A stretch of DNA of 64,000 nt from Flavobacteriales bacterium (GTDB taxonomy: Bacteria; Bacteroidota; Bacteroidia; Flavobacteriales_F; PHOS-HE28): contig JAXLVG010000010.1 of the NCBI GenBank assembly GCA_046329115.1, forward strand, positions 84,482 to 148,481, given 5' to 3'. A program made the position numbers and the translations under genes. The notes beneath the pieces are model-generated. The model ran no database searches. It saw nothing but the letters and a program-made list of their open reading frames with translations, and was not told the origin of the DNA. Below, one piece after another: positions 43,431 to 57,602 of the stretch (its first letter is position 1; each line of letters begins with the position of its first letter).

Positions 43431-43433
43431 GGA

Positions 43434-43546
43434 AACCACAGAGGCCACACAGAACACAGAGAGATCCACATCCCACCCGCACACGCCCAAAGCCTCACAC
43501 GCGTGCATCGCGCATTGCCTCTGTGACCTCTGTGGCCTCTGTGGTT
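43434..43546. repeat. palindromic intergenic repeat element, CACAGAG-heptamer family, copy 1
   Basis: Left arm aaccacagaggccacacagaacacagagag, right arm cctctgtgacctctgtggcctctgtggtt, ~55-bp spacer. Lies between the aminotransferase and C-N hydrolase genes. Confidence 0.8.
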
Positions 43547-43557
43547 GATCGATCGAC

Positions 43558-44532
43558 ATGAAACCCTTCTCCATCGCCGGCATCCAGATGCGCACCAGCG
43601 CCGCCTACCCCAACGTGGAGGCGATGAAGACCAAGCTGGACCTGCTCATGGCCATCTACCCGTGGGTGGACATGGTGATGTTCAGTGAGCTGTGCGCTTA
43701 CGGCCCGCACATCCAGCATGCCCAGCCGGTGCCCGGCGAGTTCGAACAGGAGATGTGCGCGATGGCCGCCAAACACGGGATCTGGCTGCTGCCCGGCAGC
43801 ATCTTCGAGAAGAGGGACGGCAAGGTGTACAACACCGCGAGCGTGATCGATCCCGAAGGCAGTGTGGTGACGCGCTACCGCAAGATGTTCCCCTTCTATC
43901 CGTACGAGGTGGGCGTCACCGGAGGCGATCAGTTCTGCGTGTTCGACGTGCCGGATGTGGGCCGCTTCGGCGTGAGCATCTGCTACGACATGTGGTTCCC
44001 CGAGACCACGCGCACCCTGGCCGTGATGGGCGCCGAGGTGATCCTGCATCCCACGCTCACCGGCACCATCGACCGCGACATCGAGCTGAGCATCGCGCGT
44101 ACCAGCGCCGCGGTGAACCAGTGCTACTTCTTCGACATCAACGGGCTCGACGCAGGCGGCAGCGGTCGCAGCATCGTGTGCGGTCCGGAGGGGCGGGTGA
44201 TCTACCAGGCCGACGTGAACGAGGAGTTCATCCCGATCGAGATCAACCTGGAGAAGGTGCGCCGCAGCCGCGAGCTGGGCGTGCTGCGTCTGGGCCAGCC
44301 GCTGAAGAGCTTCCGCGACCGGCCGGTGGATTTCGGCATCTACACCCCCGGCGTGAAGCACCCTGCGCTCGAGAGCCTGGGTCCGCTGATCAAGCCCGCG
44401 CGCGTGCAGGAACTGAGCGAGCTGGAAGTGAAGGACGAAACGCGCAGCCCGCACGAGCCGCCGAAGCATGACCTGTCCCGCCACAGCGGGATCATCACCT
44501 CGTTCCGACCGCCGAGCGAACAAACCGAGTGA
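43558..44532 (+). CDS. carbon-nitrogen hydrolase family protein (nitrilase/amidase superfamily)
   Basis: 324 aa. Catalytic E-K-C triad context (FSELCAYG, RYRKMFP, GVSICYDMWFPE). Confidence 0.85.
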   Translation: MKPFSIAGIQMRTSAAYPNVEAMKTKLDLLMAIYPWVDMVMFSELCAYGPHIQHAQPVPGEFEQEMCAMAAKHGIWLLPGSIFEKRDGKVYNTASVIDPEGSVVTRYRKMFPFYPYEVGVTGGDQFCVFDVPDVGRFGVSICYDMWFPETTRTLAVMGAEVILHPTLTGTIDRDIELSIARTSAAVNQCYFFDINGLDAGGSGRSIVCGPEGRVIYQADVNEEFIPIEINLEKVRRSRELGVLRLGQPLKSFRDRPVDFGIYTPGVKHPALESLGPLIKPARVQELSELEVKDETRSPHEPPKHDLSRHSGIITSFRPPSEQTE

Positions 44533-45017
44533 CCATGGGAAGCCTTGCCGGACAACGCCACATCAAGCTGAAGGACTTCGTCAGCTGGTTCGAGATCCCC
44601 GTGTACGACATCCGTCGTGCTGCGCGGTTCTATGGCACCCTCTACAACATGGAGATGGAGGTGAGCGTGAACGGGGAGTTCGCCATGGCCTACTTCCCCG
44701 CCGACAAGGGCATCGGGGGCGCGTTGATCTACGGTCCGGGCTGCGTGCCCAACGACACCGGCACGCTCGTGTACCTCAACGCAGGGAACGACCTGGACGG
44801 CATCCTGAGCCGCGTGGAGCTCGCGGGCGGCCGCGTGATCATGCCAAGGACCCTGATCAGCGAGGAGGCCGGCTGGTTCGCCCTTTTCATCGATTGCGAG
44901 GGCAACCGTGTCGCGTTGCACGAAGGCACGGCCACCAAGGCTCCGGCCAAGCCCGCCACCAAGCCTGCGGTGAAGAAGGCCCCCGCGAAAAAGGCGGCCC
45001 CGGGCAGGAAGCGCTGA
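44529..45017 (+). CDS. VOC (glyoxalase/bleomycin-resistance fold) family protein with a C-terminal Lys/Ala/Pro-rich tail
   Basis: GTG at 44529, ATG at 44535. VOC-like beta-alpha-beta-beta-beta core, followed by ATKAPAKPATKPAVKKAPAKKAAPGRKR. Confidence 0.65.
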   Translation: MTMGSLAGQRHIKLKDFVSWFEIPVYDIRRAARFYGTLYNMEMEVSVNGEFAMAYFPADKGIGGALIYGPGCVPNDTGTLVYLNAGNDLDGILSRVELAGGRVIMPRTLISEEAGWFALFIDCEGNRVALHEGTATKAPAKPATKPAVKKAPAKKAAPGRKR

Positions 45018-45029
45018 GGCCGCGAGCCC

Positions 45030-48000
45030 TCAGGCCGTGACCACGCGGGCCTCGACCTTCCTGCGCTTGCGCCCGAAGCGGAACCCCGACACCTTCTCCA
45101 TCAACCGGGTCATGATGTAGTACATCGCCGGCACGATGAAGAGGGTGAGGATGAGCGAGCTGGTGAGCCCGCCGATGATCACCCAGGCCATGCCGTTCTT
45201 CACCTCGGCGCCGTCGCCGCTGGCCAACGCGATGGGCAGCATGCCGAAGATCATCGCCACGGTGGTCATGAGGATCGGGCGCAAACGCTCGCGACCCGCC
45301 TCCACCAGGGACTCGATCAGCCCCATGCCCTCGCGCCGCAGGTGGTTGGCGAAGTCGACGATGAGGATGCCGTTCTTGCTAACCAGGCCCAGCAGCATGA
45401 TGAGGCCCACGATCGCGAAGATGCTCAGGGGCTGCATCGAGAGCGCCAGGGCGAGGAAGGCGCCCACCAGCGCCACCGGGATGGAGAAGAGCACCACGAA
45501 GGGATAGAGCGCGTTCTCGTACAGCGCCACCATGATCAGGTACACGAGCAGGATGCCGAGCACGAGCGCCAGGCCCAGGCTGCCGAAGGCCTCGCCCTGG
45601 TTCTTCGCGTCGCCGAGGTAATCGATGATGATGCCGGGAGGCAGCTGCTCCCGGGCCATGGCCTTCTGGATCTCGGCCACGATGGTGCCGCTGGGGCGGC
45701 CCACGGCCGCGCTGTTGATGGTGATGCTGTTCAGGCGGTCGGTGCGTTGCAGCACGCTGTTGCCGAGCGTCTCGTACACATCGGCGAGCTGATCCAGCCG
45801 CACCGTGGCACCGCGGGCGTTCGTCACCATCAGGCCACGCACGCTCTGCACGTCCTGGCGGTCGGCCTGGTCCAGCCGCACGTTGATCGGGTACTCCTCA
45901 CCGGCCTCCTTGAACTTGAAGCGGTCGTTGCCACGGAAGGCGGTCTGCACCGCGATGCCGATGTCGTTGCTGGTGAAGCCGAGCGTGCCCATGCGGTCCT
46001 GGTCCAGGCGCACCTTCACCTCGGGCTTCGGACTGCGGGTGCTGAACTGCACATAGTCCGTGCCGGGCGTGCCCTCGGTGATGCGTTTCACGATGCGGGC
46101 GGCCTTCCACAGGCTGTCCATCTCCACCCCCTTCACCGCGATCTGGATCGGGGTCTGCGCGCTGCCGGTGATGTTGGTCTGCGTCACCGTCACCTTGATG
46201 CCGGGGATGGCGCCCAGTTCATCGCGCAGGAGGGTGCCGAACTGCTCCGAGGTGATCCGGCGGTCGTGCTTCGGCACCAACTTCACGTTGATCTCCGAGA
46301 GGTTGGCGTTCGCGCTCCCCGCAGCACCGCGCTGTCCGCTCTGGGTGCCCACGTTGGTGAAGGCGTCGATCACCTCGGGATACTTGAGGATCACGCGTTC
46401 GGCGGCCAGCGTGAGGCGGTCGGTCTCCGCAAGCGAGGCTTGGGGCGCGGTCTCGAGCTGCACCAGGAACTCGCCACGGTCGCTGGGCGGAATGAAGGTT
46501 GCGCCGATGAAACCCGCGGGCACCAGCGCGATGGCGGCGATGAGGAGCGCGAGGATGGCGGACAATACATAGCGTTTGCGACGAAGTGCCTTGCCCAAGG
46601 CGCGGCCATACCAGTCCTGCAGGGCGGTCACCCCGCGTTCGAAGGTCAGGCTGAAGCGGCCCCAGAGGGTGCCGGTGGTGAGATGCTCGAGCCTGCCCCA
46701 GCGCGAGGCGAGCAGCGGCGTGAGGGTGAAGGCCACCACCAGGCTCATGAGGGTGCTGATCACCACCACCAGGGAGAACTCGCGCAGGATGTTGCCGATG
46801 AGACCGCCGGTGAGCGCCAGGGGCAGGAACACCACCACGTCCACCAAGGTGATGGCCATGGCGGTGAAGCCGATCTCGTTGCGTCCTTCCAGCGCCGCGC
46901 TCCAGCGGGTCTTGCCCATCTCCAGGTGACGGTAGATATTCTCCAGCACCACGATGCTGTCGTCCACCAGGATGCCGACCACCAGCGACAGCGCCATCAG
47001 GGTCATCAGGTTCAGCGAGAAGCCGAGGGCGTACATCAGGATGAACGTGGGGATCATGGCGCTGGGCAGGGCCACCAGCACGAAGAGCGAGCTGCGAACG
47101 CTGTGCAGGAAGAGCAGCATCACCAGGCCCACGATGAGCACCGCGAGCATCAGGTCGTCCATCACGGCGTTGGCGCTGGAGAGCGTGTACAGGCTCTGGT
47201 CGATGGCGATGCGGTAGTCGAAGCCGGTGTCGGCGAGCTGCGTCTTCAGCTCGGCCAGGCGCTTCTTCACCCCCTGGCTCACCTCCACCGCGTTGGCATC
47301 GCTCTGTTTCACGATCTGCATGCCGATGCCGGGCTGCCCGTTGATGCGGTTGAAGGTGGTGGCCTCGCTTAGGCCGTCCATGACGGAGGCGACGTCCTTG
47401 AGCTGGATGCGCGAGCCGTCCGCGCCCTCGCGCACCACGGTGTTGCGCAGGTCCTCCACGGTGCCGGCGCGGGCATCGAGGTTGATGGAGAGCCGGTCGG
47501 CGCGGGTCTCCACGTTGCCAGCGGGGAAGGTGGTGCTGTTGGCGCCCACGGCCTGCGCCACCTGGGCCGGGCTGATGCCGTAGGCCTTGAGCTTGTCGTT
47601 GTCCATCACCACCTGGATCTCGCGCTGCTGCGCACCGATCAGGGTCACGCTGCCCACACCGCCCACGTTGCTGATCATGGGGGCCACGCGGTCGTCCAGC
47701 AGCTGGTACAGGTCGGCGGGCGCGAGGTTGCTGCTGATGCTCAGGCGCAGGATGGGGATCTCGTCGGTGCTGAAGCGGCGCACCACGGGATCATCGGCAT
47801 CCTCCGGCAACAGGGCGCGCACCTGGTCGATGCGGCGCTCGGCATCGCGCTGGGCGTCGTTCACATCGGTGCCCTGCTTCAGCGTGATGGTGAGGGCGGA
47901 CACCCCCTCGGTGCTGGTGCTGGTGATCTGGTCCACCCCTTCGATCGCGCTCACCGCGTCCTCGATGGGCTTGGTGAGCGTGTTCTGGACCTCCTCGGGC

Positions 48001-48164
48001 GACGCACCGCGGTAGGTGGTCTGCACCATGATCACGTTGGCCTCGAACTTGGGCAGCAGGTTGTAGTTGAGCTGCTTGTAGCTGAGGAAGCCGAACAGGA
48101 TCAAGGTGACGAAGATCACCGTGATCAGCAGCGGGCGTTTGATCGCGACTTCGGTAATGGACAT
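45030..48164 (-). CDS. efflux RND transporter permease subunit (AcrB/CzcA-like)
   Basis: The track ORF 45030..48197 starts with TTG; the ATG is at 48164 (MSITEVAIKRPLLITVIFV). ~1044 aa with 12 TM helices and two large periplasmic loops. Confidence 0.9.
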   Translation of the reverse strand: MSITEVAIKRPLLITVIFVTLILFGFLSYKQLNYNLLPKFEANVIMVQTTYRGASPEEVQNTLTKPIEDAVSAIEGVDQITSTSTEGVSALTITLKQGTDVNDAQRDAERRIDQVRALLPEDADDPVVRRFSTDEIPILRLSISSNLAPADLYQLLDDRVAPMISNVGGVGSVTLIGAQQREIQVVMDNDKLKAYGISPAQVAQAVGANSTTFPAGNVETRADRLSINLDARAGTVEDLRNTVVREGADGSRIQLKDVASVMDGLSEATTFNRINGQPGIGMQIVKQSDANAVEVSQGVKKRLAELKTQLADTGFDYRIAIDQSLYTLSSANAVMDDLMLAVLIVGLVMLLFLHSVRSSLFVLVALPSAMIPTFILMYALGFSLNLMTLMALSLVVGILVDDSIVVLENIYRHLEMGKTRWSAALEGRNEIGFTAMAITLVDVVVFLPLALTGGLIGNILREFSLVVVISTLMSLVVAFTLTPLLASRWGRLEHLTTGTLWGRFSLTFERGVTALQDWYGRALGKALRRKRYVLSAILALLIAAIALVPAGFIGATFIPPSDRGEFLVQLETAPQASLAETDRLTLAAERVILKYPEVIDAFTNVGTQSGQRGAAGSANANLSEINVKLVPKHDRRITSEQFGTLLRDELGAIPGIKVTVTQTNITGSAQTPIQIAVKGVEMDSLWKAARIVKRITEGTPGTDYVQFSTRSPKPEVKVRLDQDRMGTLGFTSNDIGIAVQTAFRGNDRFKFKEAGEEYPINVRLDQADRQDVQSVRGLMVTNARGATVRLDQLADVYETLGNSVLQRTDRLNSITINSAAVGRPSGTIVAEIQKAMAREQLPPGIIIDYLGDAKNQGEAFGSLGLALVLGILLVYLIMVALYENALYPFVVLFSIPVALVGAFLALALSMQPLSIFAIVGLIMLLGLVSKNGILIVDFANHLRREGMGLIESLVEAGRERLRPILMTTVAMIFGMLPIALASGDGAEVKNGMAWVIIGGLTSSLILTLFIVPAMYYIMTRLMEKVSGFRFGRKRRKVEARVVTA

Positions 48165-48236
48165 GGTTCCTGTTCTGTTGAACCGCTCGGGGGTCAAAGG
48201 GCTCCGTAGCGGCCGTTCACCTGCGTTGATCGATGA

Positions 48237-49316
48237 TCAGTGCTTGCCGCTCAAGCGCACCTTGCTTCCGTCCGTGAGGTTCAGCTGGCCGCTCAGCACC
48301 ACGGTCTCACCCGCGACCAGTCCCTTCAGCACCTCCACGCGCTCGCCCACTTCTCGGCCCAGTACCAGGTCGCGGCGTGTCGCGCGCAGGTCAATGCTGT
48401 CGCCCGTCACCGCGTACACGTACGGTGTCTTGATCCCTTCCGCCAGGGCCTCCTTGGGGATGGCGAGCATGCGCACGGCCTCGCCACCGGTGAAGCGCAC
48501 GCTGACGAAGGTGCCGCTCTTCAGCGGGTGCGCCTTGCCGTTCTGCACGGCCACCTCCACCAGGTAATTGTGGCTGGCATCGCCCCGCGGGCTCACGAAG
48601 GTCACCTTGCCCTGGAAGGTCTCCCCGGGGAACACATCGCTGGTCACCGACACGGCCAGGCCCTCCTTCACACGGTAGGCATCGCGCTCGCTCACGTGCA
48701 CCCGGGCCTTCAGGCGGCTCACGTCCACCACCTCCACCACGGCCGTGTTGGCGCCCACGTACTCGCCCACCTCCACGTTCTTCGCCACCACCACGCCGGT
48801 GACCGGACTGATCACCTGGGCATCGCGGATCTGTTGACGGATCTGGTCGGTGCGTACCTGCTGGTTCCGGTAGTTGTAGTGCACCTCGTCGTAGTTCGCT
48901 TCGGGCACGGCCTTGCCCTCGAACAGGTCCTTGTAGCGCAGATCGTCCTTCCGCAGCTTCTCCAGCGCGAGTTCGGCCGCCTCCAGTTCAAGCTGCTTCT
49001 GCGCCACGTCCAGGCTGCCGAGCACCTGTCCCTTGCTCACCCGCGAACCAAGGTCCACGTTGAGGCTGGCGAGCTTGCCCTGGGCCTGCACCATCACCTT
49101 TGCATGGTCGTAGGGCTCCAGCGTGCCCGGCACGGTGAAGGTGCCTTCCACGTCGGTGATCGCGGTGGTGAAGGCGGTCACCGGGATGGCGAACCCGCTG
49201 CGGTCCACGGGCTGTTTGGCCGCGTCGAGCTTCTTCTTGTTCGCGGCCAGTTTCAGGCCGATGCCCAGGGCCAGCGCGACCAGCACAAGGGGCAACATCC
49301 ATTTACGGTTCTTCAT
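48237..49316 (-). CDS. efflux RND transporter periplasmic adaptor subunit (membrane fusion protein)
   Basis: C-terminal 359 aa of ORF 48237..49757, from ATG 49316 (MKNRKWMLPLVLVALALGIG). Coiled-coil and beta-barrel MFP domains. The upstream part of the ORF is an artefact. Confidence 0.85.
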   Translation of the reverse strand: MKNRKWMLPLVLVALALGIGLKLAANKKKLDAAKQPVDRSGFAIPVTAFTTAITDVEGTFTVPGTLEPYDHAKVMVQAQGKLASLNVDLGSRVSKGQVLGSLDVAQKQLELEAAELALEKLRKDDLRYKDLFEGKAVPEANYDEVHYNYRNQQVRTDQIRQQIRDAQVISPVTGVVVAKNVEVGEYVGANTAVVEVVDVSRLKARVHVSERDAYRVKEGLAVSVTSDVFPGETFQGKVTFVSPRGDASHNYLVEVAVQNGKAHPLKSGTFVSVRFTGGEAVRMLAIPKEALAEGIKTPYVYAVTGDSIDLRATRRDLVLGREVGERVEVLKGLVAGETVVLSGQLNLTDGSKVRLSGKH

Positions 49317-49342
49317 GGCGCCGTGGCGTCTGTGGGGTTCGA

Positions 49343-50665
49343 TCAAAGTGTCTTGGCGTAGTCGAGCAGGGTGCCCTTCGCCTTCTCCAGGTCGATCAGG
49401 GCGATGATGCGGTTGAGGTGCGAGGTGACCCAGTTGTTGCGGGCCTCCTTCAACTGGTAGTCGGCGTTCAGCAGGTCGCTGAGGGAGGCCGTGCCCTGCT
49501 GGTACTTGAGGTTGGTGTTGGCGAACACGTCCTGGGCCAGTTGCAGGTTGGACTCGTCGCTCTCCACGTTGGCATTGCTGGCGAGCAGGCGCGTGTCGGC
49601 GTTCTGGTAGTCGAGCTGGAACCCGAGGATGTTGTCGCGCTGGCGCTCGCGGGCGTTCTCCAGGGCGATGCGGCTCTGCTGGATCTGGCTGCTGCGGCGC
49701 AGACCGCTGAACACCGGCACGTTCAGCTTCAGGCCGATCGAAGCGAAGTCGTACCACGAGTTGAAGCTGGCGCCCAGATCGTTGCCTTGGGCCATTGTTC
49801 CCACGCGGCCATAGGCGCTCAGGGTGGGGATGAAGGCGTTCCGCTTGCGGCGCAGATCGATGGACTGCATGAGCACGGATTGCTCGTCGAACTGGTAACT
49901 GAGCAGGTTGGCGGGTGCGAAGGAGGTGGCACTGGGCTGGCGCATGTTCTCCGAGGTCCGCTGCGGCTCCGTCAGCTCCAACGGCTCGCTGATGGGCATG
50001 CCGATGATGCGCTTGAGGCGGGCGACCGCGAGGTCGTAATTGGCCTGGGCCACCGTGCGCTGCGAGGCGATGTTCCGCCGTGTCACCTCCACGCGGTCCA
50101 CGTCCAGTTCTTGCACCACGCCCTTCGCCAAGCGCAACTGCAGGATGGGTACCAGCGCATCGTACTGCTTCAGGTTCTCGTCGAGCAGGCGTACCTGCTC
50201 CCGGTAGGTCTGGGCCTGCGCATAGGTGTGTGCCACATCGTACACCAATTGCTCCTCCACCTGCCGGGAACGGATGTCGGCCATCGCCTGGTTCGGGCGG
50301 CTGGCCTGGATACCGTTGAGCTGCGCCACGTCCACGAGCACCTGCTCGGCCTGCAGGTTCACGTTGGTGATGTACTGGGTGCCGAACTGCACCGGCGTGG
50401 GCCGGTCGCTGAACACACCGGCCGGCAGGATGGTGGTCTGGCGCTTCAGGTTGTCGTCCAGCTGCCCGTAGCCGTTCACCTGCGGGAGGTACCCGCTCAC
50501 GGCCTCCTGGGCCTGGGCATCGGCCCGGCGCCGTTCGTTCGCGGCGATGACCATGTTCGCACTGTGCACCCGACCGTAGTCGAGGGCCTCGCGCAGTGTG
50601 AAGGCCTGCTGGGCCTGGATGACAGAGGCACCGAATAAGGCGAGGGAAAGAATGCTGCTCCTCAT
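49343..50665 (-). CDS. TolC family outer-membrane efflux protein
   Basis: 440 aa with a signal peptide (MRSSILSLALFGASVIQAQQ) and two TolC repeat halves. Confidence 0.85.
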   Translation of the reverse strand: MRSSILSLALFGASVIQAQQAFTLREALDYGRVHSANMVIAANERRRADAQAQEAVSGYLPQVNGYGQLDDNLKRQTTILPAGVFSDRPTPVQFGTQYITNVNLQAEQVLVDVAQLNGIQASRPNQAMADIRSRQVEEQLVYDVAHTYAQAQTYREQVRLLDENLKQYDALVPILQLRLAKGVVQELDVDRVEVTRRNIASQRTVAQANYDLAVARLKRIIGMPISEPLELTEPQRTSENMRQPSATSFAPANLLSYQFDEQSVLMQSIDLRRKRNAFIPTLSAYGRVGTMAQGNDLGASFNSWYDFASIGLKLNVPVFSGLRRSSQIQQSRIALENARERQRDNILGFQLDYQNADTRLLASNANVESDESNLQLAQDVFANTNLKYQQGTASLSDLLNADYQLKEARNNWVTSHLNRIIALIDLEKAKGTLLDYAKTL

Positions 50666-51105
50666 TTCACGTCCCCGGAATTGGCTGTTTCATCCATCGT
50701 GCGCAGGACCTTGAGGAAGACCGACAGGTCCTTCTCCCCGATACCGCCGAGCACCTGCGCGAAGACCTTGGAGCGCAGCTTCGAGGCCTTGCGGTGGATC
50801 TCCTGGCCCGACCTGGTCACCACCAGGATCTTCCGCCGCCGGTCGTCCGGGTCCATCTGGCGCTCGATCCAGCCGGCCTGCTCCATCTCGTCGATCTGGC
50901 GCAGCATCACGCTCTTGTCCTTCGCGAAGTGGTTGGCCAGATCCGTCTGCACCGCCCGGCTGTTGGTGAGCAGGAAATCCAGCACGCCGAACTGCGGCAG
51001 CCGCAGCTCGGATCCGTGGCTGTCCAGTTCCACGGCCATGAGGCGCACCACGCTGCGCATGGTGGTGGGCAGAAGCTGTGCGATGTCGTCCGTTAGGATG
51101 CTCAT
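50662..51105 (-). CDS. MarR family transcriptional regulator
   Basis: ORF 50662..51159. ATG at 51105 (MSILTDDIAQLLP). Winged HTH. 4-bp overlap with tolC; first gene of the efflux operon. Confidence 0.8.
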   Translation of the reverse strand: MSILTDDIAQLLPTTMRSVVRLMAVELDSHGSELRLPQFGVLDFLLTNSRAVQTDLANHFAKDKSVMLRQIDEMEQAGWIERQMDPDDRRRKILVVTRSGQEIHRKASKLRSKVFAQVLGGIGEKDLSVFLKVLRTMDETANSGDVK

Positions 51106-51113
51106 GTCGATAG

Positions 51114-51174
51114 TTGCGTTCTGCAACGGCACAAATGTATGCATTGTTGTCTTTTGCAACTATTGCTTTGTGCC
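51114..51174. promoter_or_regulatory. AT-rich operator/promoter region upstream of the marR-tolC-MFP-RND operon with nested inverted repeats
   Basis: gttgcgttctgcaacggcacaaatgtatgcattgttgtcttttgcaactattgctttgtgcc contains GTTGC/GCAAC and GGCACAAA ... TTTGTGCC. Divergent from the decarboxylase gene. Confidence 0.4.
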
Positions 51175-51376
51175 TCTATTTGGGATGGACGGTTCCACAG
51201 GGCCCTCCAGTGGCGTATGCCGGCCATGGGTCCATGCGCCTCCCCCATGGGTCAACGGCGCCACGACCCCCTGACCCTCAAACGGTCCCACACGTATGTT
51301 CGCCCTTGGACCGCACCCGATCGATGGCGGTACCGCTTCCCTATCTTGTCCCGCACGGTCCCAGCCTGCCTTGCCC

Positions 51377-54136
51377 ATGCCCAACGCCACGGCCGTCCAC
51401 ACCCGCTCCCACTACAACGCCGCCCGGCGCCGGTCCCACACCTGGGACCAGTTGAAGCTGGCCTGCATGGACCTCGATGAAGGCCGTGGCACCCCGCAGG
51501 AGGTCGAGGCCATCCTGAAGGACCTCCACGCCATCGAGCTGTATTGGGCCTTCCCCGGCCGGGAAACGGTGCAGCAACTGAGTGACATGCTCCGCAGCAA
51601 GGAGCACCACGGGCTTCATCTTGCGGTGAACCACGTGGTGCGCATGCTCAGCAGCGGCTCGTTCCGCAGCGACACGGTGGCCATGCTCGATCCCCGCTCG
51701 GGGCGCAACGAGCTGCTCGCCGATGAGGCCGAAAAGCCGCGCCCCAACTACTTCGAGGTGCTTTTCGTCGACGACATCGACGACGTGGAGGAGGAGGCGC
51801 TGAAACAGAAGCTGAAGAAGGTCCGCGACAAGAGCGACGAGTTCGTGTACGACACCGTAGTGGTGCGCACCGTGCAGGACGCACTGATCGCACTCCTCTT
51901 CAACCACAACATCCAGGCGGTGGTGGTACGCTTCGGGGTGCCCTACCCCAGCAGCAACCACAAAGGCGTGCTGCGGGAGTTCACCCGTGCCATCGACGCG
52001 CTCAACCCCGGCGACATCGGCCGCGCCAACATGGGCCCCTACCTGGGCCGCATCTGCCGCTGGTTCCGCCCCGAGGTGGACCGCTACTACGTGACCGACA
52101 CGCCGGTGGACGGGCTGAAGGACACCACGCTGGCCACCTTCAAGCGCATCTTCTACCGCACCGAGGACCTCACCGAGTTGCACCTCACCATCCTGCGCGG
52201 CACGATGGAGAAGTTCGAGACGCCCTTCTTCACCGCGCTGAAGGACTACAGCCGCCGGCCCATGGGGGTGTTCCACGCCATGCCCATCAGCCGCGGCAAC
52301 AGCGTGTTCAAGAGCCGGTGGATCCAGGACTTCGGCGAGTTCTACGGCCGCAATCTCTTCCTGGCCGAGACCAGCGCCACCACCGGCGGCCTCGATTCGC
52401 TACTGCAGCCCACCGGTCCGCTGAAGAAGGCGCAGGAGCTGGCCGCGCGCGCCTTCGGTAGCCAGCACACTTTCTTCGCCACCAACGGCACCAGCACCAC
52501 CAACAAGATCGTGGTGCAGGCGCTGGTGGAGCCCGGCGACATCGTGCTCATCGACCGCGACTGCCACAAGAGCCACCACTACGGCATGGTGCTGAGCGGC
52601 GCGTACCCGGTGTACCTGCACAGCTACCCGCTCACCAAGTACAGCATGTACGGCGCGGTGCCGCTGTCGCACATCCGCGAACAGCTCTGCGCGCTGCGGA
52701 AAGGCGGGCGGCTGGACAAGGTGAAGATGCTGCTGCTCACCAACAGCACTTTCGACGGCGTGGTGTACAACGTGGAGCGCGTGATGGAGGAGGTGCTCGC
52801 CATCAAGCCCGACATCGTGTTCCTGTGGGACGAGGCCTGGTGGGCCTTCGCCCGCTTCAGCTACGTGCTGCGCCAGCGCACCGCGATGCACGTGGCCGCC
52901 AAGCTCGCCCGCAAGTACCGCACGCCCGAGTACCGCGCCGAATACGCCGCGCACATCAAGGGCCTGAAGAAGGGCGAGGAGCCGCGCCTGCCCGACCCCG
53001 ACAAGGTGCGCATCCGCGTGTACGCCACGCAGAGCACGCACAAGACGCTCACCTCGCTGCGCCAGGGCAGCATGATCCACATCTGGGACGAGGACTTCGT
53101 GAAGAAGAGCGAGGCCAGCTTCCACGAGGCGTACATGACGCACACCAGCACCAGCGCCAACTACCAGATCCTCGCCAGCATGGACGTGGGCCGGCGGCAG
53201 GTGGAGTTCGAGGGCTTCGAGCTGGTGGAGAAGGCCATCGAGCTGGGGCTGCTGCTGCGGCGTACCATCCGCGAGAACCCGCGGCTGAACAAGTGGTTCG
53301 ACATCATCACCATCGGCGAGCTCATTCCCAGTGAATACCGGCAGAGCGGACTGGACAGCTACTATCGCCGCGACCAGGGCTGGAACGCGATCGAGAAGGC
53401 GTGGGCCACGGACGAGTTCGCGGTGGACCCCACCAAGATCAACCTCTACACGGGCAAGACCGGGATCGACGGGGACACCTTCAAGAACAAGTTCCTGATG
53501 GACAAGCACCAGATCCAGATCAACAAGACCTCGCGGAACTCGGTGCTCTTCATGACCAACATCGGCACGACGCGGGGCTCGCTCGCGTACCTCACCAAGG
53601 TGCTGCTGCACATCGCGGACGAGCTGGAGGCGCGCAACGCCGGTTTCGAGCACGACGACAAGCGCGCACATCTGGCCCGGATCCGTGCGCTCACCGAGGA
53701 GATCCCGCCCCTGCCCGATTTCAGCAGCTTCCACCGCAGTTTCCAAGGCCAGCCCGGCGTGCCCGGCGGTGACCTCCGTTCCGCGTACTTCCTCGCCTAC
53801 GACGAAAAGCGATGCCGGCACGTGAAGCTCGACGCCGCGCTGGCCGAGATGAAACAGGGGGGCGAGCTGGTATCCGCCTCCTTCGTGATCCCCTACCCAC
53901 CGGGCTTCCCCGTGCTGGTGCCGGGGCAGGTCATCAACAAGGAGATCATCGACTTCCTCATCGCCATCGACGTGAAGGAGATCCACGGCTACCGCCCGGA
54001 GCTGGGCCTGCGCGTGTTCACCGATGCAGCACTGGGAAGGCAACGGACCACGACGGCCATGGGGGGGATGAAGCAAATGACAAGCTCCAAGTCCTACGTG
54101 TCAAGCCTCAAGACATCCGCACGCAAGAAGAAGTAA
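51377..54136 (+). CDS. Orn/Lys/Arg decarboxylase family protein, large AAT-fold type (~920 aa)
   Basis: ORF 51296..54136. ATG at 51377 (MPNATAVHT). PLP-binding STHK motif (YATQSTHKTLTSLRQGS) and DRDCHKSHH block typical of CadA/AdiA/SpeF-type decarboxylases. Long N-terminal wing-like region. Confidence 0.8.
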   Translation: MPNATAVHTRSHYNAARRRSHTWDQLKLACMDLDEGRGTPQEVEAILKDLHAIELYWAFPGRETVQQLSDMLRSKEHHGLHLAVNHVVRMLSSGSFRSDTVAMLDPRSGRNELLADEAEKPRPNYFEVLFVDDIDDVEEEALKQKLKKVRDKSDEFVYDTVVVRTVQDALIALLFNHNIQAVVVRFGVPYPSSNHKGVLREFTRAIDALNPGDIGRANMGPYLGRICRWFRPEVDRYYVTDTPVDGLKDTTLATFKRIFYRTEDLTELHLTILRGTMEKFETPFFTALKDYSRRPMGVFHAMPISRGNSVFKSRWIQDFGEFYGRNLFLAETSATTGGLDSLLQPTGPLKKAQELAARAFGSQHTFFATNGTSTTNKIVVQALVEPGDIVLIDRDCHKSHHYGMVLSGAYPVYLHSYPLTKYSMYGAVPLSHIREQLCALRKGGRLDKVKMLLLTNSTFDGVVYNVERVMEEVLAIKPDIVFLWDEAWWAFARFSYVLRQRTAMHVAAKLARKYRTPEYRAEYAAHIKGLKKGEEPRLPDPDKVRIRVYATQSTHKTLTSLRQGSMIHIWDEDFVKKSEASFHEAYMTHTSTSANYQILASMDVGRRQVEFEGFELVEKAIELGLLLRRTIRENPRLNKWFDIITIGELIPSEYRQSGLDSYYRRDQGWNAIEKAWATDEFAVDPTKINLYTGKTGIDGDTFKNKFLMDKHQIQINKTSRNSVLFMTNIGTTRGSLAYLTKVLLHIADELEARNAGFEHDDKRAHLARIRALTEEIPPLPDFSSFHRSFQGQPGVPGGDLRSAYFLAYDEKRCRHVKLDAALAEMKQGGELVSASFVIPYPPGFPVLVPGQVINKEIIDFLIAIDVKEIHGYRPELGLRVFTDAALGRQRTTTAMGGMKQMTSSKSYVSSLKTSARKKK

Positions 54137-54139
54137 GCC

Positions 54140-55843
54140 ATGAGCAAGAAGACCAAGGCGACCGCGAAGAAGACCCCGGCCCGCCGCAAGGCCGCCAAGA
54201 AAGCCCCCGCCAAGCGCACGGCACGCAAGGCTGCGAAGCCCGGAACGAGCCGACCGGTGAAGAAGACCGCTACGAAGAAGAAGGCGCCGGTCAGGAAGCT
54301 GGTAGTGCGCAAGAAGAGCGTTTCGCGACGCCAGCCCAACGGGCGGGTCGAGGCCCGGCGTGGCAGCGCCGCACTCAAGGGCATCAGCGACATCCGGCGC
54401 TTCTTCCACCGCAACGAGGTGCCGCTCTATTTCATCAGCGCCACCAACTTCAACCTGCTGGGCGCGGACGAGTGGATCAAGGGCTTCAAGTTCATCACCT
54501 ACATCGACTGCTTCGACGGGCTGCACCCCAACCTGATGAGCCCGCGCACCGAGGAACCGCACGAGGAGTTCCAGAGCATCGAGGACATCAACAACTACCT
54601 GCTCACGCACAGTGAGGTGCGCGACTTCATCGAGAGCAGGAGGATGAGCGGGAAGACCGCAGGGAAGGCCCTATTCCTGATGTTCGATGAGAAGACCGAA
54701 GCGCTGGCGAAGAAGGCCGGGCTCGAGGTGATCTTCCCGCCCGCCAAGCTGCGCAGCTGGCTGGACAACAAGGTGAACACCAACCGCGTGGCCGAGAAAG
54801 CCGGCGTGCCTTGCGTGCCCTATGTGCTCAGTCCCGTGAAGAACTACGCGCACCTCCTGCAGGTGGCCGCGAAGGGCAAGCTCGGCAGCGACCTGGTGGT
54901 GCAGACCCCCTACGGCGACAGCGGCCACACCACATTCTTCATCAAGAACGAGGCGGAGTACGCCAAGTACGCCAAGGAGATCGAGGCGGAGAAGGAGTGC
55001 AAGATCATGAAGCGCATCAACTGCCGCGGTGCGGCCATGGAGGCCTGCGTCACGCGGCACGGCACCATCGTGGCCCCGTTGATGACGGAGCTGGTGGGCT
55101 TCAAGGAGCTGACCCCGTACAAGGGCGGCTGGTGCGGCAACGAGATCTACGCCGACACCTTCACGCCGGAGATCCGTGCGAAGGCCCGCCGCTATGCGCG
55201 CAAGTTCGGCGACCAGCTGCTGAAGGAGGGCTACAAGGGCTACTTCGAGCTCGACTTCCTGATCGACACCGACAACGGCGAGATCTACCTCGGCGAGCTG
55301 AACCCGCGCGTGACCGGCGCGAGCTCCATCACCAACCACGCCGCCTTCGCCCTGGCGGACGCGCCGCTCCACCTCTTCCATACGCTGGAATGGATGAACG
55401 TGCCGTACGAGCTGAGCGTGAACGCGCTGAACCGGCGTTGGAGCGATGAGCGCAACATCGACAGCTGGGGCCAGATGGTGATCAAGTACACCGCCGATGA
55501 TGTGCAGCGCGTGACCGACGCGCCCCGCAGCGGCATCTGGCGCATGCGCGACGACGGCAGCATCTACTTCTGGCGCATGGACACGCACCGTCGCTATGTG
55601 GAGAAGGACAACGAGGCCTTCTTCCTGCGGATCACGCGTCCCGGCGACTGGTTCTACGAAGGTGCCGACATGGGCATCCTGGTGATGCGCGACCGCATGA
55701 TGACCGACGACTTCCAGCTCACCGAACGCGCCAAGAAGTGGCTGGCGGCCATCCGCGGGCAGTTCAAGAGCATGGCCCCCGGAGCGCATGGCACCAACGG
55801 GCATGAGCACCTGCTGGAGGTGGGCGGGTTCAAGATGATGTAA
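54140..55843 (+). CDS. ATP-grasp domain protein (carboxylate-amine ligase type) with a ~70 aa Lys/Arg/Ala-rich N-terminal tail
   Basis: 567 aa. N-terminus MSKKTKATAKKTPARRKAAKKAPAKRTARKAAKPG... ATP-grasp core with a CPSase-like ELNPRVTGASS motif. Starts 4 bp after the decarboxylase stop. Confidence 0.7.
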   Translation: MSKKTKATAKKTPARRKAAKKAPAKRTARKAAKPGTSRPVKKTATKKKAPVRKLVVRKKSVSRRQPNGRVEARRGSAALKGISDIRRFFHRNEVPLYFISATNFNLLGADEWIKGFKFITYIDCFDGLHPNLMSPRTEEPHEEFQSIEDINNYLLTHSEVRDFIESRRMSGKTAGKALFLMFDEKTEALAKKAGLEVIFPPAKLRSWLDNKVNTNRVAEKAGVPCVPYVLSPVKNYAHLLQVAAKGKLGSDLVVQTPYGDSGHTTFFIKNEAEYAKYAKEIEAEKECKIMKRINCRGAAMEACVTRHGTIVAPLMTELVGFKELTPYKGGWCGNEIYADTFTPEIRAKARRYARKFGDQLLKEGYKGYFELDFLIDTDNGEIYLGELNPRVTGASSITNHAAFALADAPLHLFHTLEWMNVPYELSVNALNRRWSDERNIDSWGQMVIKYTADDVQRVTDAPRSGIWRMRDDGSIYFWRMDTHRRYVEKDNEAFFLRITRPGDWFYEGADMGILVMRDRMMTDDFQLTERAKKWLAAIRGQFKSMAPGAHGTNGHEHLLEVGGFKMM

Positions 55844-55845
55844 AT

Positions 55846-55925
55846 GCGAGTGGCGAGTAGTGAGTGGCGAGTAGTGAGTGGTAGCTGCAGCGGCAGACTC
55901 ACCACTCACTACTCGCCACTCGCCA
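55846..55925. repeat. long GC-rich hairpin built from 7-bp units (gagtggc/gagtagt) between the ATP-grasp and C45 genes
   Basis: gcgagtggcgagtagtgagtggcgagtagtgagtgg [tagctgcagcggcagac] tcaccactcactactcgccactcgccactcc. The arms pair over ~27-34 bp, with no T-run after the stem. Confidence 0.7.
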
Positions 55926-55938
55926 CTCCTCGAACGAA

Positions 55939-56940
55939 GTGAGAGCGATGTACGTCCACCTGAAACTCGTCAAGGAACCCTGGCCCAGCGACCGCTGGCA
56001 GAAGTTCTTCGACCATGCCTGGCCCCTGTTCCGCATCTGGTACGAGAGCGAGGGACTGGAGAAACGCCCCGACCAGGCGACCTGCCGGAACATGCTGGAG
56101 CTGCACATGCCGGAACTGATCCCGGTGTACAACAGCCTGTGCCGCCTGGCGAACAACGACGATGTCGCCTCGCGCTTCCTGAGCATGTGGAACCCGCCGC
56201 CCTACATGGCCGGGTGCTCGCAGGTGGCGTGGACCAAGGGCGCGCCCACCCTCATCCGCAACTACGACTTCGACCCGCGCTACTTCGATGGGCGCCTCCG
56301 CTACACCGAGTACTGCAAGCCCGTCATCGGCATCCAGGACAGCGCCTGGGGCCTGCTCGACGGCATGAACGTAGACGGCCTGGCCGTATCGCTGGCCTTC
56401 GGTGGCCGCAAGGTGTGGGGCTCCGGCTTCGGCATCCCGCTGGTCATCCGCTACGTGCTGGAGACCTGCAGCACCACCGATGAAGCGTGCGCTGTGCTTT
56501 CCCGCATCCCGGTGCACATGGGGTACAACGTCACCGTGGTGGATAAGAGCGGCAAGTACGCCACCGTGTACATGAACCACGACAGGCCGGCCCAGGTGAT
56601 CTACCAGGCCGTGGCCTGCAACCACCAGCACCAGGTGGAGTGGGACGAGTACGCCGCCTTCACCCACACCATCGAGCGCAAGCACCACCTGGAGCACAGC
56701 ATCGCGCAGCCCAAGCTCACTCGGGCCGCGCTCATCAAGCAGTTCCTCAAGCCACCGCTGTACAGCCAGCAATACCTGCGCGGCTTCGGCACGCTGTACA
56801 CCGCAGCCTACGACGTGGCCAAGGGCCGGGTGCAGATCATCTGGCCGGACAAGCAGGTGGAGGCGAGCTTCACGCGTTTCGAGGAGCAGGAGGTGCAGGT
56901 GGTGCTGTTGAGGCCGGTGGGGAGGTACTTGGCGAAGTAG
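55939..56940 (+). CDS. C45 family Ntn-hydrolase (acyl-CoA:6-aminopenicillanic-acid acyltransferase-like)
   Basis: GTG at 55939, ATG at 55948 (MYVHLKL). Probable nucleophile Cys in MAGCSQVAW. ~330 aa, the size of C45 autoproteolytic acyltransferases. Confidence 0.6.
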   Translation: MRAMYVHLKLVKEPWPSDRWQKFFDHAWPLFRIWYESEGLEKRPDQATCRNMLELHMPELIPVYNSLCRLANNDDVASRFLSMWNPPPYMAGCSQVAWTKGAPTLIRNYDFDPRYFDGRLRYTEYCKPVIGIQDSAWGLLDGMNVDGLAVSLAFGGRKVWGSGFGIPLVIRYVLETCSTTDEACAVLSRIPVHMGYNVTVVDKSGKYATVYMNHDRPAQVIYQAVACNHQHQVEWDEYAAFTHTIERKHHLEHSIAQPKLTRAALIKQFLKPPLYSQQYLRGFGTLYTAAYDVAKGRVQIIWPDKQVEASFTRFEEQEVQVVLLRPVGRYLAK

Positions 56941-56968
56941 TGCTCGGGACGGAGAGTTATCATTGTTT

Positions 56969-57055
56969 GAACCACAGAGGCCACAGAGAACACAGAGGAC
57001 AGCGTTCAACACCACTCATGGCATTTCTCTATGCCCTCTGTGCTCTCTGTGGTTC
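56969..57055. repeat. palindromic intergenic repeat element, CACAGAG-heptamer family, copy 2
   Basis: gaaccacagaggccacagagaacacagagg ... cctctgtgctctctgtggttc. Directly upstream of, and overlapping, the GxxExxY track ORF. Confidence 0.8.
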
Positions 57056-57571: not shown

Positions 57572-57602
57572 AGGCCGCTTCAGCGGCCCATAAATTCGCA
57601 CC

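Follow-up and report, generated by a model that had tools for sequence, protein, structure and literature searches.

Tails rich in lysine, alanine and proline (K/A/P) on a DksA/TraR-family protein, a VOC protein and an ATP-grasp ligase, all encoded in the window (the whole 64-kb stretch of DNA that was analysed), are genuine and translated, and evolution has retained them. Two are carried by enzymes from a single amine-metabolism gene cluster conserved in Bacteroidota, which probably means that the pathway is tethered to a negatively charged component of the cell. As the best explanation overall, to which we give about an even chance, selected polycationic tails on consecutive enzymes of a single Bacteroidota cluster would tether the pathway. 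This estimate is a joint one and includes the claim that the tails are under selection for net positive charge and for the absence of acidic residues, not for sequence. The features concerned are, in window coordinates:

36614..37516, plus strand: DksA/TraR-family protein, outside the cluster, whose N-terminus is extended by about 150 aa of K/A/P type (Pfam zf-dskA_traR)
42099..43430, plus strand: class-III (GABA-type) aminotransferase, first cluster gene (Pfam Aminotran_3, E 4e-116; synteny)
43558..44532, plus strand: carbon-nitrogen hydrolase, a nitrilase superfamily amidase (Pfam CN_hydrolase, E 5e-31; synteny)
44529..45017, plus strand: small VOC (glyoxalase/bleomycin-resistance fold) protein (Pfam PF00903)
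44919..45017, plus strand: K/A/P tail at the C-terminus of the VOC protein (32 aa, residues 131-162, net charge +9), with the stop codon
45030..51159, minus strand: inserted block that splits the cluster, with an RND pump (AcrB family), membrane-fusion protein, outer-membrane factor and MarR regulator (Pfam)
51296..54136, plus strand: AAT-fold Orn/Lys/Arg decarboxylase, exact start codon uncertain (Pfam OKR_DC_1)
54065..54136, plus strand: short basic stretch at the decarboxylase C-terminus, 3 nt ahead of the ATP-grasp ATG
54140..55843, plus strand: ATP-grasp ligase of the PRK06524/NF005096 family, 567 aa (NCBIfam NF005096)
54140..54367, plus strand: polycationic stretch covering residues 1-76 of the ATP-grasp ligase, its N-terminal tail (K+R 41%, D+E 1%, net charge +30)
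55939..56940, plus strand: C45-family Ntn hydrolase/acyltransferase, downstream of the ATP-grasp gene (Pfam AAT, E 3e-33)
57594..59048, plus strand: aldehyde dehydrogenase, frequent last cluster member (NCBIfam E down to 1e-130, below cutoffs; synteny)

Using a 25-aa window with at least six Lys and at least 18 Lys, Ala and Pro residues, we scanned every stop-to-stop ORF of 60 aa or more in six frames. A K/A/P-rich, acid-free stretch occurred in exactly three ORFs of the 64 kb, those of the DksA/TraR, VOC and ATP-grasp proteins, which is more than chance. The three tails have K+R fractions of 0.29-0.41 and D+E fractions of 0.01-0.03. GC3 of the tail codons is 0.79-0.88 in-frame versus 0.56-0.68 in the two other frames. 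The ATG of the ATP-grasp gene at 54140 is the first possible start past the in-frame upstream stop, and an independent metagenome gene call yielded the same 567-aa product with the same start. Among the matches listed, an extension at the same end with an intact frame was present in 115 of 120 ATP-grasp homologues (tail of at least 24 aa), 119 of 120 VOC proteins and all 120 DksA relatives. Mis-called starts or stops are ruled out by the GC3 per frame, the first ATG, the independent gene call and a frame that stays open in about 120 relatives of each protein. The tails lie inside coding regions and are H1-like in composition, as a sequence-only reading had described them, and its four statements on the sequence (the DksA, VOC and ATP-grasp tails and a basic decarboxylase end) hold in the window. 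A mobile 'KAP cassette' copied among the three genes is likewise ruled out, the longest common DNA word being 14 nt. TRF picked up no tandem repeats in either the VOC or the ATP-grasp tail, neither a current tandem-repeat expansion nor a KPAA-like array.

The ATP-grasp protein matched NF005096 with 769.2 bits (curated cutoff 684), residues 74-546 covering profile positions 11-478 of 493. The tail falls outside this match; the ORF starts with MSKKTKATAKKTPARRKAAKKAPAKRTARKAAKPG..., and the basic segment extends to about residue 76. Over 35 aligned relatives the core is 71-91% identical and the tail is not alignable. Among the 120 listed homologues (72-95% identity), the 115 tailed ones have 24-126 aa ahead of the core, nearly all basic, and the other five 12-22 aa. 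Tails of at least 30 aa are present in 48 of 70 species-level genomes spanning 34-70% GC, with an average K+R of 0.33 and D+E of 0.019 (versus 0.14 and 0.14 in the core) and a median net charge of +19. Bacteroidota tails range from 14 to 114 aa and their sequences cannot be aligned. Since about one third of the Bacteroidota orthologues have just 14-30 residues ahead of the core, the long tail is dispensable. It is absent from most of the distant family members (29-57% identity) and from four Balneolaceae-type loci (L026, L060, L077, L078). Judged from this sequence comparison, the ATP-grasp tail dates far back in the Bacteroidota subfamily. The tails are probably disordered: in the AF2 model, residues 1-75 of the ligase have a pLDDT of about 35 and no secondary structure, which is weak evidence for disorder because the whole model is weak (mean pLDDT 60.8).

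The K+R fraction of the ATP-grasp tails shows no correlation with GC (rho 0.16, p 0.27), while with rising GC A+P (rho 0.67) and R (rho 0.84) increase and K decreases (rho -0.52). This pattern suggests that the charge is selected, and the 'KAP' flavour appears to be GC filler. In genomes of 34-45% GC the tail is present with lysine but little Ala or Pro. There is a weak correlation between tail length and GC (rho 0.26, p 0.03), and tails look longer in the high-GC Flavobacteriales clade. Of 162 protein families sampled in the window and in 24 clade loci, 4 have a KAP stretch, and 41 of 742 ORFs in 56 other Bacteroidota loci were strongly polybasic, 29 of these being ATP-grasp orthologues; the base-rate sample is biased, as every locus was collected around an ATP-grasp gene (10-kb flanks around chosen genes).

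The tail of the VOC protein has a narrower distribution. The protein passes PF00903 marginally (21.3 bits, gathering 20.6, residues 19-129) with the tail outside the domain; its start overlaps the CN-hydrolase stop and its C-terminus reads ...HEGTATKAPAKPATKPAVKKAPAKKAAPGRKR. Among its listed relatives, which share 63-96% identity, the single exception is P0193, a protein that ends early. In the high-GC Flavobacteriales clade, all orthologues in the 11 loci containing the gene are tailed at 55-95% core identity, and the end is usually K/R, often KKR. None of the 37 orthologues found in other Bacteroidota loci carries the tail: 36 stop 3-4 residues past the core (...HSKN), and one (L063) has a 14-residue non-basic end. 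On this distribution, the VOC tail originated in the high-GC Flavobacteriales clade alone and is a later gain than the ATP-grasp tail. Two loci with a GC of about 0.6 (L029 and L061) lack it, so high GC by itself does not make tails; the ATP-grasp N-terminus of L029 is 33 aa and weakly basic, and that of L061 was read as 13 aa in the first scan.

The DksA extension (36614-37063, net charge +41) is probably also a later gain in this clade, which holds stand-alone KAP proteins as well. In relatives with a locatable core boundary it has a median length of 175 aa (K about 28%, A about 28%, P about 20%); the 120 listed relatives are 228-354 aa long and form a sample in which the protein search returned only tailed ones, the tail adding to the score, and dksA was in one fetched locus (L010). 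PF01258 (zf-dskA_traR) matches residues 266-296 with 30.2 bits versus 24.9, the DksA equivalog models give 44-46 bits (cutoffs 105-115), and the translation shows just one Cys in the finger region, where a complete zinc finger of this kind has four. TRF found weak 12/24-nt tandem repeats in this tail (2-3.6 copies, 70-85% match).

Could the tails be a product of lineage-wide compositional drift, in which high-GC pressure and slippage make near-neutral K/A/P ends in the Flavobacteriales clade that serve no specific function? We consider this unlikely. The restriction of the VOC tail to the clade, the trends of tail length and of Ala, Pro and Arg content with GC, the fast turnover of tail sequence and length, the repeats in the DksA tail and the co-occurrence of KAP-extended DksA with stand-alone KAP proteins all fit drift. 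But acidic residues are nearly excluded (2% versus 14% in cores) in more than 100 independent lineages, just those few of the sampled families contain the stretch, and the ATP-grasp tail persists at 34-45% GC. Moreover, the two high-GC loci without a VOC tail, one of them with a short and weakly basic ATP-grasp N-terminus, the retention of the tail by every clade VOC orthologue and the missing repeats in the VOC and ATP-grasp tails speak against drift. The reading of the tails as merely a compositional quirk, which the sequence-only reading had named as a refuting outcome, is not supported by the family count in the clade, the low-GC ATP-grasp tails, the GC-independent cationic fraction and the share of ATP-grasp orthologues among the polybasic ORFs of other Bacteroidota. 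A lineage component, also raised there, is supported by the VOC tail, the longer-looking ATP-grasp tails, the extended DksA and the stand-alone KAP proteins of the high-GC clade; the ATP-grasp tail itself is phylum-wide.

The sequence-only reading had regarded the tailed enzymes as unrelated. Instead, the VOC, decarboxylase and ATP-grasp genes belong to one conserved Bacteroidota cluster with the order class-III aminotransferase, CN-hydrolase, VOC, decarboxylase, ATP-grasp, C45 hydrolase and often aldehyde dehydrogenase. Aminotransferase, CN-hydrolase, decarboxylase and ATP-grasp genes are collinear in 52 of 80 Bacteroidota loci and all six genes in 37; the C45 gene is present in 69 of the 80, and VOC precedes the decarboxylase in 48 (median gap 52 nt). 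The RND/MarR block between VOC and decarboxylase occurs only in this genome and in L001, and an APC permease is inserted in the cluster in Cyclobacteriaceae. The decarboxylase carries the major domain PF01276 (262 bits, gathering 27) and scores far below cutoff with all NCBIfam Ldc/Odc/Adc models (208 versus 968 and similar). All NCBIfam decarboxylase, transaminase and amidase models stay under cutoff; GABA-transaminase models fit the aminotransferase best, yet below cutoff. The C45 hydrolase reaches 159.6 with C45_proenzyme (cutoff 85), and Pfam Aldedh is recorded for the aldehyde dehydrogenase on an identical contig. This enzyme content points to a pathway that processes basic amino acids or polyamines. 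In a literature search on this cluster, on 'PRK06524' and on polybasic tails of bacterial metabolic enzymes, we found nothing specific.

Across the loci, no basic tails were found on the aminotransferase, CN-hydrolase and aldehyde dehydrogenase. The C45 C-terminal extensions are variable and mostly mixed-charge, flagged basic only in two Psychroflexus loci (L068, L071). The decarboxylase ends with ...KSYVSSLKTSARKKK (last residues SSLKTSARKKK), and in nearly all Bacteroidota orthologues its end consists of a flexible G/S/T/M linker followed by a K/R cluster. The end is acidic in the four Balneolaceae-type loci, and these combine an acidic decarboxylase end with a missing ATP-grasp tail.

According to the tethering explanation, the tails would be non-specific electrostatic tethers that hold the ligase, and in the high-GC clade the VOC protein too, on a polyanion such as nucleoid DNA, RNA/ribosomes or polyphosphate. 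The proposed site would also be where the polyamines of the cell accumulate. In the high-GC Flavobacteriales clade, GC pressure would fill the spacer positions with Ala, Pro and Arg, resulting in the H1-like look. Polyanion binding, which the sequence-only reading had also put forward, would be their most economical function, with localisation to the nucleoid or to polyphosphate as a hypothesis; the identity of the polyanion and the chemistry of the pathway are both things that we infer. No polyphosphate genes were seen in the window, and the neighbourhood indicates no particular polyanion.

In bacteria, H1-like polycationic tails have mostly been described for nucleoid proteins, organisers of granules and proteins that handle DNA or RNA. 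Here the same device is found on metabolic enzymes of a conserved, uncharacterised Bacteroidota cluster. As in our case, AlgP (AlgR3) and PhaF of Pseudomonas carry a Lys/Ala/Pro-dominated, acid-poor tail on a folded domain, predicted-disordered for them and probably so here, and their KPAA-type tails bind DNA, polyphosphate granules (AlgP) and RNA (PhaF) via lysines (PMC9239181; PMC12818456). However, AlgP and PhaF are structural or regulatory proteins with long arrays of 22-25 or more KPAA units, whereas the tails described here (VOC 32 aa, ATP-grasp 76 aa) share the composition without the tandem array, sit on metabolic enzymes, in one case at the N-terminus, and lose the Ala/Pro character altogether in low-GC relatives. 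Lysine-rich low-complexity regions are in general enriched in nucleic-acid-binding proteins (PMC6821194). The PAKKA-type tails of mycobacterial Ku, HupB and topoisomerase I modulate non-specific DNA binding and are likewise basic, of low complexity, gained by a high-GC lineage and absent elsewhere (PMC3553676; PMC6821194). Their hosts already act on DNA, in contrast to the VOC-fold, PLP decarboxylase and ATP-grasp hosts, which have no known nucleic-acid role. The C-terminal domain of eukaryotic linker histone H1 and chlamydial Hc1/Hc2 are similar in composition, but the winged-helix globular domain is missing here and the resemblance is compositional, not homology. The ATP-grasp tail reached 21.4 bits (E 2e-4) with the NCBIfam Hc2 model NF038052, below the cutoff of 135; one DksA relative (P0338) has a precomputed Pfam HC2 match.

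In eukaryotic class IIb aminoacyl-tRNA synthetases (LysRS, AspRS), a lysine-rich N-terminal extension raises tRNA affinity without sequence specificity. Like the ATP-grasp tail, it is a polybasic N-terminal add-on of one major lineage that is absent from homologues elsewhere, but these synthetases have a nucleic-acid substrate and none is indicated for the ligase. For the cluster itself, analogies are found among amine-handling operons (cadBA/adiAC/speF-potE, Puu gamma-glutamylation, glutathionylspermidine synthetase/amidase). Like them, the cluster joins genes for an AAT-fold basic-amino-acid decarboxylase (plus, in Cyclobacteriaceae, the APC permease) with ATP-dependent ligase, amide hydrolase, transaminase and aldehyde dehydrogenase genes, and the logic is to protect, oxidise and deprotect. 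They differ in that our ligase is an uncharacterised ATP-grasp protein (PRK06524) rather than the glutamine-synthetase-like PuuA, that the hydrolases are of the C45 and CN-hydrolase types, and that no cluster member is called at an NCBIfam equivalog cutoff. We know of no amine-handling system that carries polycationic tails.

A role at the protein level is improbable in our view, whether as binding of an acidic partner or carrier, an intramolecular pseudo-substrate, a solubilising entropic bristle or a weak anionic-lipid anchor. Tails on consecutive enzymes of one pathway would suit it, and the pathway appears to handle basic amines (decarboxylase, Cyclobacteriaceae APC permease, transaminase, aldehyde dehydrogenase); the pseudo-substrate idea builds on the resemblance of lysine side chains to cadaverine and polyamines. 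The amino-group carrier pathways built on LysW and the ATP-grasp LysX also depend on electrostatic contacts between enzyme and carrier, which we count in its favour. However, an unsystematic look noticed no gene for a small acidic protein in the cluster, the other cluster enzymes are mildly acidic at most (net charge -9 to +4), and a hydrophobic or amphipathic segment that could anchor the tails in a membrane is missing. Charge compensation, where a tail would offset an unusually acidic core, was rejected: VOC cores average -4.4 in the tailed clade versus -3.8 elsewhere, and tail and core charges of the ATP-grasp proteins are not anticorrelated.

It is very unlikely that selection acts on the mRNA, with Lys codons (AAG/AAA) around starts keeping initiation regions open and the basic peptides as a by-product. 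The premise is that Bacteroidota start translation without Shine-Dalgarno pairing and need initiation regions that are unstructured and A-rich; in Flavobacterium johnsoniae, mRNA structure and Kozak-like bases, not Shine-Dalgarno sequences, tune translation (PMC6847099). Basic runs do flank start codons: the decarboxylase ends 3 nt ahead of the ATP-grasp ATG with its last 23 codons at a GC of 0.51 (versus about 0.65 for the genome), the ancestral arrangement puts the VOC tail just upstream of the decarboxylase start, and the ATP-grasp and DksA proteins start with MSKK and MAKK. But an M[AS]KK start is confined to these two among 48 window ORFs, and the long tails run for 30-110 codons, far past the initiation region. 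Nor are they AT-rich, since their mean GC, about 0.68 for ATP-grasp and 0.72 for VOC, equals or exceeds that of the genome. The decarboxylase end also stays basic where it is 1.2-4.7 kb away from the ATP-grasp gene, and this genome kept the VOC tail though a converging RND gene comes next.

If the tails localise the pathway, as tethering would have it, they would be a simple and testable case of bacterial metabolism organised sub-cellularly by disordered electrostatic tethers. The comparison over GC contents separates apparent selection (charge, acid exclusion) from what mutation bias supplies (Ala, Pro, Arg); even inert tails would still show how selected low-complexity tails can be told from compositional noise. 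A bolder version is a long shot: Bacteroidota may run a basic-amino-acid/polyamine pathway as a polyanion-scaffolded assembly in which the tail doubles as a sensor of polyamine occupancy. The ligase tail, together with the VOC and decarboxylase tails in some clades, would place the enzymes on nucleic acid, ribosomes or polyphosphate; tail and polyamines would compete for the same phosphate charges, and the enzyme would be released or activated as polyamine levels change. To our knowledge, metabolic control by such a disordered-tail sensor has not been described for bacterial metabolic enzymes.

Tethering, if true, would also offer a way into what the PRK06524 ATP-grasp family does, a family whose database name 'biotin carboxylase' is apparently without support. 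The ligase scored 21-33 bits with AccC and pyruvate-carboxylase models (cutoffs 597-1114), its PDB sequence matches to biotin-carboxylase domains were weak (E 1e-7), and the conserved cluster contains no BCCP or carboxyltransferase gene. The PDB sequence search and Foldseek with the AF2 model returned only generic biotin-carboxylase/ATP-grasp folds at low TM-scores (0.3-0.45) and no clue to the substrate. Two distant homologues (P0364, P0366) lie on short contigs with uninformative context, and a third (P0363) adjoins an amidase in a setting that resembles amine catabolism.

The window segment has a GC content of 59-69%, and the nearest relatives of the window are uncultured 'Flavobacteriales bacterium' genomes, many of them from wastewater plants. 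Translation gave the following basic ends, rich in lysine, alanine and proline (K/A/P) in the first, second and fourth proteins:

36614-37516, DksA/TraR protein, K/A/P-rich N-terminal half of about 150 aa
44529-45017, VOC protein, C-terminal end ...ATKAPAKPATKPAVKKAPAKKAAPGRKR
51296-54136, decarboxylase, C-terminal end ...SARKKK
54140-55843, ATP-grasp protein, N-terminus MSKKTKATAKKTPARRKAAKKAPAKRTARKAAKPG..., basic up to about residue 76

Every tail sequence quoted by the sequence-only reading was reproduced by ORF translation, so the observation is real. Its worry that the tails might fall outside real coding regions was dispelled by their coding signature and conserved open frames. GC3 within the tails was 0.79-0.88 in frame versus 0.56-0.68 in either shifted frame, and lysine was encoded by AAG nearly throughout; that is, the tail codons carry the coding signature of the genome. 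Because the decarboxylase stop lies 3 nt before the ATP-grasp ATG at 54140, an earlier start is impossible, and the same 567-aa ATP-grasp product was obtained by an independent gene call on a JGI metagenome contig. Among the relatives listed, the ATP-grasp tail comprised at least 24 aa in 115 of 120 proteins and 12-22 aa in the other 5, with the frame open. The VOC C-terminal extension was an open frame in 119 of the 120 relatives listed (P0193 ends early), and for DksA every one of the 120 listed relatives had an open extension at the same end. Since the relatives keep the extensions in open frame, and in view of GC3 by frame and the independent gene call, mis-called starts or stops were ruled out.

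Using a six-frame scan (stop-to-stop ORFs of at least 60 aa; 25 residues with K at least 6 and K+A+P at least 18), K/A/P stretches were detected in only three window ORFs, namely DksA/TraR, VOC and ATP-grasp. A looser scan (K+R at least 8 of 20, D+E at most 1) added just short patches within ordinary proteins or at their ends. When the window and 24 loci of its high-GC Flavobacteriales clade were subjected to a crude gene call (335 ORFs), 4 of 162 families had such a stretch in any member: DksA, VOC, ATP-grasp and decarboxylase (1 of 18 decarboxylases). Across 56 other loci, 41 of 742 ORFs of at least 100 aa contained a strongly polybasic stretch, and 29 of these 41 were the ATP-grasp orthologue. 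Gathering all loci around the ATP-grasp gene biases the sample; it still argues against ubiquity, and the proposal that the tails are a ubiquitous compositional quirk was not borne out in it. The longest DNA word common to the three tails is 14 nt, which indicates independent origins. By TRF, the VOC and ATP-grasp tails are free of repeat arrays, and the DksA tail shows only weak 12/24-nt repeats. Among 48 window ORFs, an M[AS]KK start occurs solely in DksA and the ATP-grasp protein.

We then mapped the window proteins onto 80 species-level loci taken around ATP-grasp homologues (Flavobacteriales, Cytophagales/Cyclobacteriaceae, Saprospiraceae, Chitinophagales, Balneolaceae and others). A class-III aminotransferase, a CN-hydrolase, the decarboxylase and the ATP-grasp gene were collinear in 52 of the 80 loci, and all six genes including VOC and a C45 hydrolase in 37, often followed by an aldehyde dehydrogenase; the median VOC-to-decarboxylase gap was 52 nt. 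Thus the sequence-only reading was right about real, coding tails and mistaken in calling the enzymes unrelated, as VOC, decarboxylase and ATP-grasp belong to one conserved cluster. Given this synteny, two of the three tails and the basic decarboxylase end lie on consecutive members of one operon-like cluster. No basic tails were found on aminotransferase, CN-hydrolase or aldehyde dehydrogenase across the cluster loci. The C-terminal extensions of C45 hydrolases vary and are mostly of mixed charge; only in two Psychroflexus loci were they flagged as basic.

In the window the cluster spans 42099-59048. Genes inserted into it, here or in related loci, were:

window 45030-51159, minus strand, RND block (AcrB-type pump, HlyD-type membrane-fusion protein, outer-membrane factor, MarR regulator)
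window 57031-57492, PDDEXK_3 / GxxExxY gene, also in L005, L012, L019 and L023
locus L033 8313-9758, APC-family amino-acid permease, also in L027-L037 and L072-L076

The RND/MarR block breaks the otherwise contiguous cluster; apart from the window, only the nearest relative (L001) has it between VOC and decarboxylase. The PDDEXK_3 / GxxExxY gene lies between C45 hydrolase and aldehyde dehydrogenase in the window and between ATP-grasp and C45 elsewhere, and behaves like a mobile insert. The permease separates decarboxylase and ATP-grasp in Cyclobacteriaceae, a placement resembling the decarboxylase/antiporter pairs cadBA, adiAC and speF-potE. With its decarboxylase (AAT-fold), GABA-type transaminase, aldehyde dehydrogenase, two amide hydrolases and ATP-dependent ligase, the gene content suggests handling of basic amino acids or polyamines; no cluster member reached an NCBIfam equivalog cutoff. 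Literature searches turned up no paper on this gene cluster, on the PRK06524 family or on bacterial metabolic enzymes with such tails. What is new is to find the tails on metabolic enzymes, encoded in a single conserved, uncharacterised gene cluster of Bacteroidota.

The ATP-grasp ligase belongs to NF005096/PRK06524 (769 bits versus a cutoff of 684), and since the match covers residues 74-546, its tail lies outside the family profile. The database name of this family, 'biotin carboxylase', appears unsupported: AccC-type models, with cutoffs of at least 597 bits, scored 21-33 bits, PDB biotin carboxylases reached E 1e-7 at best, and no carrier or carboxyltransferase gene was found within the conserved cluster. 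Distant family members (29-57% identity, from a search of 1.84 billion representatives) mostly have 5-20 residues ahead of the core; independent basic tails occur in a few (P0361, P0364, P0404). The gene of one tail-less homologue of 49% identity (P0363; L081 1319-4210, L082 3-2789) abuts its upstream gene without intergenic gap, in L081 an Amidase (PF01425). A PucR-type regulator, a saccharopine-dehydrogenase-like gene and a class-III aminotransferase lie nearby, and by its gene content this is another putative ligase/amide hydrolase pairing in an amine-metabolism setting.

Over 35 aligned relatives the ligase core was 71-91% identical, and the tail was not alignable. For the 70 species whose tail boundary could be set, 14-114 aa (median 42) precede the conserved DIRRFF motif. 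Tails of at least 30 aa, present in 48 of the 70, had mean fractions of 0.33 K+R and 0.019 D+E, versus 0.14 and 0.14 in the cores, and the median net charge of the tails was +19. The tail is also found in genomes of 34-45% GC, where it is rich in Lys, Thr, Ser and Val with few Ala or Pro; at 41% GC, L033 has 33 Lys within 76 tail residues. Four Balneolaceae-type loci have a non-basic ATP-grasp N-terminus of 15 residues. The cationic fraction was independent of genomic GC (rho 0.16, p 0.27), whereas with GC A+P rose (rho 0.67), Arg rose (rho 0.84) and Lys fell (rho -0.52). Selection therefore appears to act on charge, the K/A/P composition that recalls H1 being the spacer filler of a 65% GC genome. 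The comparison sets charge, which appears selected, apart from a K/A/P flavour due to mutation bias, and on the ligase the tail is a phylum-wide family trait; both points are new.

The VOC tail has a narrower distribution. It was basic and 35-59 aa long in the 11 clade loci having the gene (among L001-L024, GC 0.56-0.70), and in the 120 VOC relatives listed it measured about 30-63 aa, with K/R as the usual end and KKR a frequent one. None of 37 orthologues from other Bacteroidota loci had it; 36 stop 3-4 residues past the core (...HSKN) and one (L063) has a 14-residue non-basic end. Present in these 11 clade loci and absent from the other Bacteroidota loci with a VOC orthologue, including two of 59-60% GC (L029, L061), the tail is a clade-specific gain, and on this comparison high GC by itself is insufficient for it. 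Neutral lineage-wide drift would account for this clade-restricted gain and for the GC-dependent filler residues; it leaves the exclusion of acidic residues, the low-GC tails and the rarity in other families unexplained, and we consider it unlikely. Over long evolutionary spans charge is kept and acidic residues are excluded while sequence and length drift. That the tails are real and under selection is near-certain.

The tails might serve as non-specific electrostatic tethers to a polyanion. Cellular polyamines are mostly bound to the same polyanions, so tethering amine-pathway enzymes there is a coherent reading. The tails add a net charge of +9 (VOC), +30 (ATP-grasp) and +41 (DksA) to near-neutral folded domains. 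From an AlphaFold2 model, weak as a whole, in which ATP-grasp residues 1-75 have a pLDDT of about 35 and no secondary structure, we infer that they are probably disordered. Precedents close in composition exist: the AlgP tail, of KPAA type, binds DNA and is required to position polyphosphate granules (PMC9239181), the homologous PhaF tail activates translation and binds RNA through lysine residues (PMC12818456), DNA binding by mycobacterial Ku is modulated by PAKKA tails (PMC3553676), and nucleic-acid-binding proteins are enriched in lysine-rich low-complexity regions (PMC6821194). The tails lack repeat arrays of the AlgP/PhaF type and score below the Hc2 profile cutoff. They are histone-H1-like in composition and probably in physics; they are convergent low-complexity segments rather than family members. 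A tether function has roughly even chances, and for the explanation as a whole we would lean neither way. Similarly doubtful to drift is a protein-level role, in which the tails bind an acidic partner, autoregulate as pseudo-substrate, solubilise or bind membranes weakly: no gene for an acidic partner caught the eye in the cluster, and a charge comparison ruled out compensation for an acidic core.

Nearly every Bacteroidota decarboxylase orthologue closes with a short K/R cluster behind a flexible G/S/T/M linker, and in L007 and L009 this end has become a KAP-like run. Balneolaceae-type decarboxylases end acidic, in the same loci that are without the ATP-grasp tail. Two features flank the ligase gene:

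window 54065-54145, decarboxylase/ATP-grasp junction (stop TAA 54134-54136, ATG 54140, 3 nt apart)
window 55846-55935, near-perfect hairpin between ATP-grasp stop and C45 start, stem of about 33 bp, GAGTGGCGAGTAGT repeats

The junction is locally AT-richer and AAG-rich (GC 0.51), and its 3-nt spacing suggests translational coupling in an organism without Shine-Dalgarno use. Selection at the mRNA level for A-rich, unstructured initiation regions in Shine-Dalgarno-independent Bacteroidota (PMC6847099) is plausible for the first few Lys codons and for the last 23 decarboxylase codons (GC 0.51, directly upstream of the ATP-grasp ATG), but the long tails run for tens of codons at a computed 68-72% GC, making it the least probable explanation. 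The hairpin (RNA MFE -63.2 kcal/mol, z-score -9.9) occurs once in the window; as no T-run follows, it is not a canonical intrinsic terminator; it may act in attenuation or RNA stability, or be the scar of an insertion.

The DksA relatives listed (n=120) were 228-354 aa long, and in those with a locatable core boundary the median extension was 175 aa, its composition being about 28% K, 28% A and 20% P. The window protein scored below the DksA equivalog cutoffs. Its 'C4 zinc finger' region (37400-37516) contains one cysteine (…YGICRVTGRLISKERLRLVPHATLS…), so it is probably a zinc-independent DksA-like variant. Stand-alone K/A-rich proteins were also present in relatives:

L011 5478-6974, minus strand, stand-alone K/A-rich protein
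L022 14661-15389, plus strand, stand-alone K/A-rich protein
L038 7047-7454, minus strand, stand-alone K/A-rich protein

Two have no Pfam match and a common C-terminal motif, DATFDPTPDT.VPM, and one joins a K-rich N-terminus to a SWIB/MDM2 domain.
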